The notes under the pieces are model-generated. The model had not been told where the DNA came from. It searched no databases and was given only the letters and a program-made list of their open reading frames with translations. Shown in pieces: positions 19,089 to 22,335 of a stretch of DNA of 64,000 bases. The DNA lies in NCBI GenBank assembly GCA_046314755.1, contig JBKDBG010000033.1:417-64416 (forward strand). The letters are read 5' to 3'. The position numbers and the translations under genes were made by a program. Every line of letters begins with the position of its first letter. Position 1 is the first letter of the stretch. This stretch comes from Bacteroidota bacterium (GTDB taxonomy: Bacteria; Bacteroidota; Bacteroidia; UKL13-3).

Positions 19089-20078
19089 ATGTACGGAAAC
19101 GCTTATATCGATCCAAATGAAAAACCAAAATCAATTATTGATGGTGAGGATCCAATTAAATTAGCCGAATTTGAAGCTCGTATTGCCCGTGGAGAAAAAA
19201 TTGAACCTAAAGACTGGATGCCCAAAGAGTATCGCAAGCAACTCATTCGCATGATTGAGCAACATGCACACTCCGAAATTATTGGTGCATTGCCGGAAGG
19301 AACATGGATTACCCGTGCTCCGGGCTTTAAACGCAAGTTGGCTTTAATGGCCAAGGTGCAAGATGAAGTTGGTCACGCACAATTGTTATACAGCGCGGCA
19401 GAAACCTTAGGTAAAAGCCGCGAAGCCATGATTAATGATTTAATCACGGGAAAATCAAAATACTCAAACGTATTTAATTATCCTGCATTTACTTGGGCTG
19501 ATGCCTGTATTATTGCTTGGTTAATTGATGCAGGGGCTATCATTAATCAAGTGGCAAATGCCAAAGGTAGTTATGGACCATACGGCCGTGCCTTGGATCG
19601 TATCTGTACAGAAGAAAGTTTTCATTTAAAATATGGACACGACAATGTTGTAACACTTGCAACCGGAACTGCTACGCAACGTAAAATGGTTCAGGAGGCA
19701 TTAAACCGTTGGTGGCCACCAATTATGCATTTCTTCGGACCAAGTGATAAAATTTCTAATCATACAGAAATTTTAATGCGCTGGAAAGTGAAAATGGCAA
19801 CCAATGACGATATGCGCCAGCAATTTTTAAATATGTATGTGCCAAAAATTTGGGATTTAGGTTTAACGGTTCCTGACACAAATCTTCGCAAGAATGAAGA
19901 AACCGGTAAATGGGAATATACCGAACCGGATTGGGATGAATTTAAGCGTGTAATCAATGGCGATGGCCCATGCAATGCCGAGCGTTTAGCCGTGCGCAGA
20001 AATGCGGAAGAACGCGGCCGTTGGGTTCGTGAAGCGTTAAACACAGCCCAATCAAAATATGTAGTTCCGTTGGCATAA
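19089..20078 (+). CDS. paaA: 1,2-phenylacetyl-CoA epoxidase catalytic subunit PaaA
   Basis: Di-iron ferritin-like motifs ([29 protein letters not shown]). It is followed by paaB, paaC and paaD. Confidence 0.9.
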
Positions 20079-20083
20079 AATCT

Positions 20084-20170
20084 CTTTGCGAACTTTGTGT
20101 ATTCGATTTGTGCACTTTGTGGTAAAAACAGTAAACCACAAAGTGCGCTAAGATTTCACAAAGCACACGA
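20084..20170. repeat. Imperfect palindromic intergenic element between paaA and paaB
   Basis: Perfect 11-bp stem GCACTTTGTGG (20112-20122) / CCACAAAGTGC (20136-20146) with a 13-nt loop, plus an outer CTTTGTG (20093-20099) / CACAAAG (20157-20163) pair. Confidence 0.6.
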
Positions 20171-20193
20171 AGAAAATAATAATATTAGAATCA

Positions 20194-20574
20194 ATGATCA
20201 AATCCTTAGACCCGCGTGTTACACGCGAACAAATAGAATTGGATAACCAGATTGCTCCGTTACAGGAACTGGACCAATGGGAAACATATGAAGTGTTCCA
20301 TCAAAAAAAACGTGGCGACCAACACTTGCATGTGGGTATTGTGCACGCCCCAAATCCTGAAATGGCGCTGTTGTTTGGTAAAGAACAATATGGCCGCAGA
20401 GGAATAACAGCCAATATTTGGGTAGTAAAAACCGCGAACGTTTTTGCCAGCGAATACGAAGACCAGGACATTTTTGAAACTGTTCCCGAAAAACAATACC
20501 GCGAAGCCGGAGGCTATAAAGTGATGGAGAAAATTAATAAGTACAAAAAGGAAAACAAGGAATTAAAAGATTAA
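20194..20574 (+). CDS. paaB: 1,2-phenylacetyl-CoA epoxidase subunit PaaB
   Basis: WETYEVFHQKKRGDQHLHVGIVHAPNPEMAL is the conserved PaaB core. Its position after paaA fits. Confidence 0.9.
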   Translation: MIKSLDPRVTREQIELDNQIAPLQELDQWETYEVFHQKKRGDQHLHVGIVHAPNPEMALLFGKEQYGRRGITANIWVVKTANVFASEYEDQDIFETVPEKQYREAGGYKVMEKINKYKKENKELKD

Positions 20575-20580
20575 AAGATT
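20566..20580. repeat. Left terminal inverted repeat of the four-helix-bundle cassette
   Basis: AAAGATTAAAAGATT is the exact reverse complement of 21006-21020. It overlaps the paaB stop codon (20572-20574). A third AAAGATT lies at 20591-20597. Confidence 0.7.
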
Positions 20581-20615
20581 GTAAAAATTGAAAGATTATT
20601 TCGAGCAAAACAATC

Positions 20616-20996
20616 ATGAATAAGATACAACGGTTTGAAGATTTGGATGTTTGGCAAAAATCAGCTGCCTTATACAAGAATATATCAGTATTGTGTGAAC
20701 AAGGCAAACTTAAAAACGACCTTACAGCTAAAGACCAGTTGAAACGAGCCGCTCTATCTATATCAAACAATATTGCTGAAGGATATGAATACGAAAACAA
20801 TTTACAATTCATACGTTTTTTGAAATATGCAAAAGGTTCAGCAGGCGAATTAAGAAGTATGATTTCAATTCTGTATGAATGTGAACTGATTGGGGAAACT
20901 CAGTCAAAAAAAGTCATTCAAGATGTCACATTCATATCTCAGTCGATAAAAAACTTTATGAAGTATTTAGTCAATCATTACCAATCAACGAAATAA
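20616..20996 (+). CDS. Four-helix-bundle protein (23S rRNA intervening-sequence protein / Avd-like family)
   Basis: FEDLDVWQKS...DQLKRAALSISNNIAEGYE...FLKYAKGSAGELRS matches the family signature closely. Confidence 0.9.
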   Translation: MNKIQRFEDLDVWQKSAALYKNISVLCEQGKLKNDLTAKDQLKRAALSISNNIAEGYEYENNLQFIRFLKYAKGSAGELRSMISILYECELIGETQSKKVIQDVTFISQSIKNFMKYLVNHYQSTK

Positions 20997-21005
20997 ATCA
21001 CAACC

Positions 21006-21020
21006 AATCTTTTAATCTTT
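21006..21020. repeat. Right terminal inverted repeat of the four-helix-bundle cassette
   Basis: AATCTTTTAATCTTT, followed by further AATCTT(T) units up to 21037. Confidence 0.7.
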
Positions 21021-21050
21021 CAATCTTCAAATCTTTAAATAATTACAAAA

Positions 21051-21800
21051 ATGAACCACATCAAAGAATTATTATATAAAATGGCTGATGATTTATTAAT
21101 CATTGGTCACCGCAATAGCGAATGGACAGGCCTTGGGCCAATATTGGAAGAAGACATTGCTTTTTCTTCTATGGCACAAGATAAGATTGGACAGTCGCAA
21201 GCGATATTTCAATTGTTGCATGAATTAGGAGAACAAGAACCCGATACTGTTGCCTTTACACGCAATGCCAATCAGTTTCATAATGCGGTATTTACCGAGT
21301 TACCCAATGGTGATTATGCGTTCAGCACCATGCGTCATTTTTTGTATGATGTAGCCGATCAATTGCGTTTTGAAATGTTGGCCAATTCATCTTACGAACC
21401 TTTAGCAAAAGTATCACGCAAAGTAAAAGGTGAGTTAAAATATCATGTTTTTCATGCCAATACCTGGATTACAAAATTAGGCGCAGCCACAGAAGAAAGC
21501 CATGCCCGCATGCAAACTGCTTTAAATGAATGTTGGAATTATGCGTTGGGAATGTTTGAAGAAAGTGAATACGAAAAGCAACTCATCAGCGAAAAAATAT
21601 TTGATGGAGAGGCTGAATTGCAAAAACGCTGGTTAGGTGCCATTTCACCTATTCTTACTAAAGCTACATTAACAATTCCGAATGAATCAACCTGGCAGGC
21701 ACAAATGGGCGGAAGAAAAGGCATACACACCGAGCACTTACAACCTTTATTAGATGAGATGAGTGAAGTGTTTAAAATAGATCCGACTGCCGAGTGGTAA
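21051..21800 (+). CDS. paaC: 1,2-phenylacetyl-CoA epoxidase subunit PaaC
   Basis: N-terminus LLYKMADDLLIIGHRNSEWTGLGPILEEDIAFSSMAQDKIGQ is typical of PaaC (PaaI in the older nomenclature). Operon context agrees. Confidence 0.85.
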   Translation: MNHIKELLYKMADDLLIIGHRNSEWTGLGPILEEDIAFSSMAQDKIGQSQAIFQLLHELGEQEPDTVAFTRNANQFHNAVFTELPNGDYAFSTMRHFLYDVADQLRFEMLANSSYEPLAKVSRKVKGELKYHVFHANTWITKLGAATEESHARMQTALNECWNYALGMFEESEYEKQLISEKIFDGEAELQKRWLGAISPILTKATLTIPNESTWQAQMGGRKGIHTEHLQPLLDEMSEVFKIDPTAEW

Positions 21801-21849: not shown

Positions 21850-22335
21850 ATGCTAAGCGAAACGCAAATATGGCAAGCCCTTGAGGTGGTAAAAGACCCT
21901 GAAATTCCAACATTAAGTATGGTGGATATGGGTATTATCACCAAAGTAGAAGTACGTGGCGAAAGCGATGTATTTGTGGAAATGACACCTACGTTTTCGG
22001 GATGCCCCGCTATTAAAATGATGGAAGGCATGGTTGCCGAACGCTTAAAAGAAATAGGCATTAAAAAGGTGGAAGTGGTAACCACATTTGATAAACCCTG
22101 GAACAGCAACAAACTCACCGAGCGTGGCCTGATGTGTTTAAAAAAGCATGGATTGGCTCCACCCGTTAAGCATGAAGGAGAGGTAACACAAGAATTGTTA
22201 GAACATACTGAATGCCCTTTTTGCGGAAGCAAAAATACAGAAATGAAATCACCGTTTGGCCCAACCCTTTGCCGCAGTATGCATTATTGCAATAATTGCT
22301 TGCAAGCCTTTGAAGGGTTTAAGCCGGTGGTGTAA
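21850..22335 (+). CDS. paaD: 1,2-phenylacetyl-CoA epoxidase subunit PaaD
   Basis: DUF59/MIP18-like N-terminal domain (VKDPEIPTLSMVDMGII) and a C-terminal Cys4 ribbon CPFCGS...CNNC. Confidence 0.85.
   Translation: MLSETQIWQALEVVKDPEIPTLSMVDMGIITKVEVRGESDVFVEMTPTFSGCPAIKMMEGMVAERLKEIGIKKVEVVTTFDKPWNSNKLTERGLMCLKKHGLAPPVKHEGEVTQELLEHTECPFCGSKNTEMKSPFGPTLCRSMHYCNNCLQAFEGFKPVV

Follow-up and report, generated by a model that had tools for sequence, protein, structure and literature searches.

We analysed a 64,000-nucleotide window of DNA from a Bacteroidota bacterium of the UKL13-3 lineage (assembly GCA_046314755.1, contig JBKDBG010000033.1, positions 417 to 64,416; coordinates given below without a contig name are those of the window) and found that its paa operon carries a small cassette between paaB and paaC. 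Here, a gene for a four-helix-bundle protein of the PF05635 family lies between two arrays of a short tandem repeat in opposite orientation. We read this, with a probability of roughly 0.55, as an operon-resident hairpin cassette, in which two inverted arrays of an 8-nt unit make up the arms of a hairpin between cistrons and the gene lies in its loop, and which would be the counterpart of those 23S rRNA intervening sequences (IVSs) that bear an open reading frame (ORF). The architecture of the cassette, its age, the selective constraint on its protein, its behaviour as a module and the turnover at its site are well supported.

A four-helix-bundle gene between inverted arrays

The protein encoded by the cassette belongs to the PF05635/TIGR02436 family: it scores 95.5 bits against PF05635 (cut-off 33.8), where its residues 8-112 cover positions 1-105 of the 106 in the profile, and 90.2 bits against TIGR02436 (cut-off 24). 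Its single relative among solved structures is Xcc0516 (PDB 2GSC), with five chains of four-helix bundle. PMC10053308 cites Lin et al. (2006) for this structure. By homology, the 126-aa protein is probably a pentamer-forming, Avd-like bundle that associates with nucleic acid. These results agree with a preliminary description of this DNA, made from its letters, which had placed a 126-aa four-helix-bundle gene between paaB and paaC and in which every coordinate holds. The host operon runs paaA-paaB-(cassette gene)-paaC-paaD downstream of a TetR-family gene, and the identities of PaaA, PaaB, PaaC and PaaD come from Pfam and NCBIfam profiles (Table 1). The cassette is real and no assembly artefact, since contigs from independent metagenomes span the whole of it (run X2, 20323-21387, three mismatches; run X5, 20506-21115, two mismatches).

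The sequence AAAGATTAAAAGATT at 20566-20580 is the exact reverse complement of 21006-21020. This inverted repeat had been described as 15 nt long, but the perfect match extends to 16 nt, and a 20-nt repeat with 95% pairing is formed by 20562-20581 and 21005-21024. Extra units were also correctly placed at 20591-20597 and 21021-21037, whereas the heptamer period does not stand, as Tandem Repeats Finder (TRF) gives a period of 8 nt (unit NAAAGATT). The 3' end of paaB reads GAA TTA AAA GAT TAA and lies inside the left array, so that the left repeat does supply the last codons and the stop codon of paaB, as had been proposed; the C-termini of PaaB in relatives are a few residues shorter and consist of other residues. 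Arm complementarity at the cassette was far above that of shuffles (z = 10.4). In addition, the minimum-free-energy RNA fold of 20530-21060 pairs both arrays around the ORF (-102.3 kcal/mol, z = -3.6), and none of 100 shuffles folded as well. The cassette thus has complementary termini predicted to form an enclosing stem, as in 23S IVSs.

Table 1. Features of the paa operon and its cassette in the window.
Feature	Position	Strand	Evidence
paaA (1,2-phenylacetyl-CoA epoxidase subunit A; first gene of the operon)	19089..20078	+	PF05138 280.5 bits
Gene-less hairpin in the paaA-paaB spacer; CTTTGTG/CACAAAG units	20084..20170	+	sequence
paaB; last four codons and stop (ELKD*) within the left arm	20194..20574	+	PF06243 87.8 bits
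Variable segment; a 73-nt or 51-nt gene-less spacer instead in related populations	20554..21049	+	contig joints
Left arm: 4.5 tandem NAAAGATT units, sense orientation	20562..20598	+	TRF; contig coordinates C33:20978-21014 minus 416
Gene for four-helix-bundle protein, 126 aa, PF05635/TIGR02436	20616..20996	+	profiles; PDB 2GSC E = 5.5e-8; pN 0.14-0.17, pS 0.73
Right arm: 4.4 tandem AATCTTTN units, left arm inverted; ends 10 nt upstream of the paaC start	21006..21040	+	TRF
paaC	21051..21800	+	PF05138 249.7 bits; TIGR02158 259.7 bits
paaD	21850..22335	+	PF23451 and PF01883

Gene and arms in this genome and in relatives

Short tandem arrays are common in this genome: TRF reported 64 of period 7-8, with 51 in the 12% that lies outside long ORFs. 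Arrays of GAAAGATT occur at at least ten further loci, with up to 17.9 copies at C77:66621-66763, and frequently adjoin arrays built from different units (AAAACTT, AACACTC, CACAGAG, AACTAAT). The arms therefore share with known intergenic short tandem arrays a unit of 7-8 nt, an intergenic position and recurrence throughout the genome. Since arrays of the arm unit are found at many spacers, the arms are drawn from a genome-wide repeat vocabulary and are not element-specific ends. The array on C77 is a 95%-matching array of GATTGAAA, the genome's longest of the arm unit, and directly follows the stop codon of a 226-aa C-terminal ORF resembling a tRNA synthetase. Composite blocks of several units, often near contig ends, were found at C44:494-904 and C121:1058-1688, and an element of about 45 nt (…CCCGCACCCTG.CCCT..AGGGCAC..CCGCAC…) recurs between arrays of several units at C72:28690-28760, C30:2380-2430 and C121:8760-8810.

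This abundance could mean that we are dealing with an ordinary conserved gene whose inverted flanks are incidental: if spacers are generally filled with short arrays oriented to stop and start codons, any small gene will look armed. In other phyla, heptamer arrays have been reported with an orientation relative to start codons (PMC4679880), and one gene-less allele of our locus has a one-sided AATCTTT-type array upstream of paaC. Even so, we consider this explanation very unlikely. Of all the arrays detected by TRF, the one at paaB-paaC is alone in having an inverted counterpart within 1.5 kb. The whole 2.55-Mb assembly contains just six perfect inverted repeats that are 16 nt or longer and have a loop exceeding 100 nt, and half of them enclose a gene of one of two families (two PF05635 genes and one PF13366 gene). 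Furthermore, 21 of 32 PF05635 genes sampled from the same bacterial family, or two thirds, have an arm complementarity of z > 5; their units match across the two sides, with low scores in the same orientation, and differ between loci (AGTTCTT, AGTTCGA, GCTGTTG, GCCAGAA, GACCATA and others). A matched inverted pair of arrays around a gene is rare and specific despite the arrays found genome-wide. The preliminary description had counted a wide occurrence of AAAGATT-type arrays as a point against its own view. This objection applies in part, as ten or more further spacers carry such arrays, with as many as 17.9 copies in one case, while the matched inverted pair is still rare.

The assembly contains three PF05635 genes, all between protein-coding genes. 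The second copy, on contig C2, lies between two subunit genes of 2-oxoacid:ferredoxin oxidoreductase and is flanked by inverted AAGTTTT/AAAACTT arrays, and the third, on contig C119, lies between genes read as serC and serA. The three copies thus have three different flanks, namely AAAGATT units, AAGTTTT units and nearly none. PF05635 is widespread among relatives and was present in 58 of the 61 genomes sampled from the bacterial family, at 0-12 copies per genome. We also observed that all three PF13366 genes of the genome (PD-(D/E)XK_3, 'GxxExxY'; C72:24180-24646, C30:6528-6878 and C77:46135-46485) lie between inverted short-unit arms, of the CACAGAG, CACAGCG and CACAAAG types. This is a second family of small genes packaged in hairpins, with its own repeat vocabulary.

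Gene and arms behave as a unit in relatives. Two protein clades, AB1 and AB2, occupy the paaA-paaB site and are 42-57% identical to each other; each of two genera contains both of them. The arms consist of AAAGATT/AAGGTT units in AB1 and of ACGGGTT/ACGAGTT units in AB2, and left and right arms score 12-21 in complementarity when both come from one clade and 6-8 when they come from different clades. Relatives that are 42-47% identical to the window's protein occur in Chryseobacterium, Epilithonimonas and Flavobacterium, some as pseudogenes, in another operon and with an arm unit of the ATTAAAAG type; their neighbours are sufA- and sufB-like as read from terminal residues, without a family scan. 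The gene and both of its arms are inherited, travel and change together as one module. Two stricter rules were discarded. A unit that tracks protein identity monotonically held in a first sample and failed with more relatives, as ACGGGTT-type arms accompany proteins of 44-48% identity in the same bacterial family, and AAAGATT-type arms those of 42-47% in Chryseobacterium and Flavobacterium. A strict rule of one protein for each unit in a genome fails here because the unit types outnumber the three genes.

Module behaviour is also what would be expected if the four-helix-bundle protein recognised its own 7-8-nt unit in RNA or DNA. In such a protein-plus-repeat system, the armed gene would be the autonomous member, from which the hairpins without a gene and the one-sided arrays scattered through the genome would derive as non-autonomous members, resembling the repetitive extragenic palindromes (REPs), REP doublets (REPINs) and RAYT transposases. 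The arm unit follows the protein clade at one site, paaA-paaB. Across the 61 genomes, arrays of at least three AAGATT units co-occur with proteins of the window's clade (eight genomes with both, one with arrays only, three with the protein only and 49 with neither; Fisher p = 5e-7), and presence and absence covary within at least three genera. The two commonest unit families of our genome are those of its two armed copies, and 2GSC crystallised as five four-helix bundles while the arrays hold about 4-5 units. On the other hand, the association was not replicated with the unit of the second copy (p = 0.24 at an identity of at least 45%, and a marginal p = 0.017 at 60% or more), and no relative of the second copy was found at E <= 1e-12 in the two genomes richest in AAAACTT/AACACTT arrays, G069 (62 hits) and G084 (82 hits). 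G044 and G056, with ACGGGTT-type arms (AB2-type cassette), still carry many AAGATT arrays, our genome has more unit types than four-helix-bundle genes, and the genome counts are not phylogenetically independent. We therefore hold the idea to be possible but tentative. In its widest form, which is equally speculative, PF05635 proteins and 7-8-nt intergenic arrays would be one genetic system in which a pentameric protein reads its cognate unit; gene-less hairpins, one-sided arrays and 23S intervening sequences with or without an ORF would be its products, and a parallel system would consist of the PF13366 genes and units of the CACAG type.

Age, selection and turnover at the paa spacers

Orthologous cassettes at the paaB-paaC site were found on two public contigs. 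On L044, the protein is 76% and PaaC 87% identical to ours, and on L047 the values are 69% and 72%. The cassette of L044, including its arms, has 77.7% DNA identity over 493 nt, and the flanking paa genes have 77-86%. Compared with its orthologs, the four-helix-bundle gene has nonsynonymous differences per site (pN) of 0.14-0.17 and synonymous differences (pS) of 0.73, comparable to paaB and paaC, and its protein is under purifying selection. Since the cassette has diverged like its flanks, arms included, it is an old, vertically inherited and selectively maintained resident and no recent arrival. On L047 (Logan contig, ERR7850091), the paa operon is a mosaic relative to the window, with PaaA and PaaB at 93%, PaaC at 72% and PaaD at 77%, which points to recombination with a break in or close to the paaB-paaC spacer. 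Some armed four-helix-bundle genes have in-frame stops or frameshifts and keep their arms (L041, L042, L043, G045:C14, G071:C7, G022:C9 and G081:C13), which indicates that cassettes decay in place.

The site is variable. The four-helix-bundle gene between paaB and paaC is unique to this genome among the 17 species of its genus that were compared, and 13 of them have a gene for a 471-aa membrane protein instead; the remaining congeners comprise one with an ORF-less spacer of 235 nt, one in which paaB and paaC are about 15 nt apart, and one that is unscorable because of a contig end. The membrane gene is probably the older occupant of the site. Its multi-pass product (L007:72-1487, with homologs in L006-L028) has no Pfam match and also occurs between paaB and paaC in other genera (24-55% identity there, 24-100% overall). 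In this lineage it appears to be a component of the paa operon that is conserved but has escaped annotation.

Alignment of paaB-paaC spacers in relatives, which had been suggested in the preliminary description, revealed gene-less alleles and a variable presence of the cassette. Lake metagenomes that contain the filled form also hold related populations in which 73 nt replace 20554-21049 (joint 20553|21050; runs X3, X7 and X29), with flanks 97-100% identical at the junction and about 83% further out. Gene-less alleles were read with references extending into the cassette, 30 nt from each side, so the 73-nt allele reads CAAAAATCCTAATCCTCAACTCGCAATAAC…AAAACCCGTAATAACTAACTCGCAATATCG with its middle 13 nt unread. 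A second allele, complete at 51 nt (GAAAGCATAATCATCCTTCTAATCTTTTACCATTCTCAACCTTGTAATCAA), replaces 20556-21044 (joint 20555|21045; run X5) between flanks of about 93% identity. Both alleles have one-sided arrays. The gene-less populations are closer to the window than L044 in the same segments, and therefore the gene-less state is best read as loss or replacement.

Turnover extends to the neighbouring spacers. The paaA-paaB spacer of the window is filled by an 87-nt gene-less two-tier hairpin with the vocabulary found around the PF13366 gene on C77 (Table 1), and a contig of RNA run X24 with flanks about 96% identical has 517 nt against 111 nt at this site, including a piece that resembles a four-helix-bundle gene. 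PF05635 genes occupy the paaA-paaB site in L044, in L048 and in no fewer than nine genomes of the bacterial family; the filled sites include that of G022. In G022, L044, L048 and L049, the paaB-paaC or paaC-paaD spacer contains a hairpin of inverted AAAGATT/AAGGTT arrays that has no gene. The cassette lineage is found in the paaA-paaB and paaB-paaC spacers across several genera, where it has been repeatedly lost, replaced or swapped. Since gene-less hairpins occur in the same spacers, the recurrent element is the intercistronic array hairpin, and the four-helix-bundle gene is its optional loop cargo. This parallels rRNA intervening sequences, which occur with and without an ORF.

The preliminary description had viewed the locus as a cassette with terminal inverted repeats that landed in an operon spacer. 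As a classical mobile DNA element, this would be a cassette of about 475-500 bp, similar to a miniature inverted-repeat transposable element (MITE) or another transposon, recently inserted here and with inverted repeats recognised by a transposase or recombinase acting in trans. Part of that picture stands, including the compact module of gene and arms, its position in an operon spacer, the intact operon and the variable presence. The patchy distribution, the sharp boundaries against gene-less alleles (20553/20555 and 21045/21050), the same type of gene and arms in different operons of distant genera, and two cassette types at one site within the same genera are all in keeping with mobility. 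The recent landing does not stand, given an ortholog that has diverged as much as its flanks (77.7%), the lack of a target-site duplication and the differing arms. Copies of a MITE or insertion sequence share terminal inverted repeats, create target-site duplications and leave clean empty sites. Here, the arms are tandem arrays of variable length and not defined termini, the three copies in the genome have no common arm sequence, which argues against a transposon with defined ends, and the gene-less alleles hold 51-73 nt of other, repeat-bearing sequence. An 18-nt direct repeat at 20536-20553 and 21038-21055 (AATAAGTACAAAAAGGAA and AATAATTACAAAAATGAA) was considered as a target-site duplication and rejected as an A-rich coincidence, because gene-less alleles keep both positions with unrelated sequence between them and relatives are without the right-hand copy. 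No transposase, integrase or other mobility gene and no reverse transcriptase was found within about 4 kb of the cassette, as had been noted before. Taken together, a classical mobile element is an unlikely explanation, if less so than incidental flanks.

Transcription, known systems and significance

Metatranscriptome contigs from four studies contain the gene. The left arm is crossed by contigs of runs X29 (20499-20750) and X24 (20192-20809) and the right arm by one of X24 (20930-21288), and contigs from three RNA runs join paaB to the gene or the gene to paaC. The gene is transcribed, and it is co-transcribed with paaB and paaC unless contaminating DNA is responsible. In four other RNA runs (X26, X28, X30 and X32), only the interior 20577-21001 was assembled, with no paaB or paaC contig in the stretches compared. 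This fits a separate or more stable RNA, and equally low depth and contig breaks induced by the repeats. The RNA runs consist of assembled contigs that break at repeated array words, which in the metagenomes form separate high-depth contigs of 31 nt, so contig ends are uninformative on RNA ends. Promoter and terminator scans gave nothing beyond chance.

We infer the RNA processing and the function of the protein, and propose the following mechanism for the hairpin cassette. In the polycistronic RNA, pairing between the arms would create a long-range stem some 20-35 bp in length, which is the design of ORF-bearing 23S intervening sequences. Such a stem is a likely substrate of the cell's RNase III, the gene for which is present in the genome. 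Cleavage would release the mRNA of the four-helix-bundle protein and would separate the paaAB and paaCD segments unharmed. The arms may be kept matched by selection for pairing or by homogenisation between them, and turnover probably proceeds by homologous recombination in the conserved flanking genes or arrays and not by a transposase.

Several observations weigh against this interpretation. The arms are A/U-rich, which makes the stem weak for its length, and those of the L044 ortholog are more degenerate. At the third copy, arm complementarity is almost nil (z = -1.2), and about a third of the sampled family members have no clear arms. Arrays of the arm unit are mostly one-sided elsewhere in the genome, and thus arrays also exist independently of hairpins and of the four-helix-bundle gene. 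The concordant change of the arms could reflect a process at the DNA level or a protein that reads the unit, and not RNA pairing. Finally, contigs that cross both arms represent unprocessed read-through RNA or contaminating DNA, and the assembled contigs give no sign of cleavage at the arms, their ends being uninformative.

The closest known systems are the 23S rRNA intervening sequences of Coxiella burnetii (helix 45) and Leptospira (PMC4990558). In Coxiella burnetii, a gene of the same family lies inside a 28-bp stem and adjoins tandem GACAGAT heptamers, and the intervening sequence is excised by RNase III; a mobile origin of these sequences has been proposed and never demonstrated (PMC4990558). 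The likeness includes the S23p/PF05635 family, an ORF in the loop of a stem with inverted termini, a length of about 430-500 nt, tandem heptamers beside the ORF in Coxiella, and a location inside a transcribed unit that stays functional. However, the host in our case is an mRNA operon spacer and not an rRNA helix (9, 25 or 45), both arms are tandem arrays, and excision by RNase III, which was demonstrated for Coxiella, would be only a prediction for the paaB-paaC cassette. In addition, our protein shows clear purifying selection, whereas the ORF of the Coxiella sequence is undergoing reductive evolution according to the authors who described it (PMC4990558).

The arms also resemble published intergenic heptamer arrays, such as the TAACTGA arrays of Beggiatoaceae, Cyanobacteria and Bacteroidetes (PMC4679880) and the GGGAATC arrays of Xanthomonas, in which 70-75 pairs are in convergent (inverted) orientation (PMC4692102). 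All have units of 7-8 nt in 2-20 copies, are strongly intergenic between co-oriented genes, lie near start and stop codons, are transcribed and are patchy across lineages. The units in our genome are A/T-rich and do not form G-quadruplexes, and those papers name neither an enclosed gene nor a link to PF05635.

PF05635 is the Pfam family found most often beside the reverse transcriptases of diversity-generating retroelements (DGRs) (PMC10053308), and our protein shares a homologous four-helix-bundle fold with Avd of these elements (BPP-1 Avd, PDB 4DWL). The link is by homology only: a DGR has an adjacent reverse transcriptase and a pair of template and variable repeats, and none of these was found next to the three copies. 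A single RVT_1 hit was obtained in the genome (C107:19721-20317), and no PF05635 gene was found on the same contig. RAYT transposases mobilise REPs, which are palindromes of defined form, and intercistronic stem-loops shape the stability of operon mRNA. Like REP/REPIN elements and such stem-loops, the cassettes are repeated, form hairpins, are transcribed and tolerated in operons, and are frequent in gene-less versions. Unlike REPs, the cassettes have tandem arrays as arms and can hold a protein gene in their loop, and no link to RAYTs was seen.

A literature search, largely without subscription journals, found no description of PF05635 genes in array hairpins inside mRNA operons. The family was discovered in rRNA intervening sequences in the 1990s and, to our knowledge, has been an orphan since then, the only studied relative being Avd of diversity-generating retroelements. 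For annotation, our results mean that inserts of a recurrent class can go unnoticed in the spacers of conserved operons and change the C-terminal residues encoded by the preceding gene. Overall, the stem-plus-ORF design in mRNA operons, the exchangeable module of gene and arms and the selectively kept protein make old questions testable in culturable Flavobacteriia such as Chryseobacterium, including the nature of intervening sequences, the role of their protein and the reason why short tandem arrays fill bacterial spacers.

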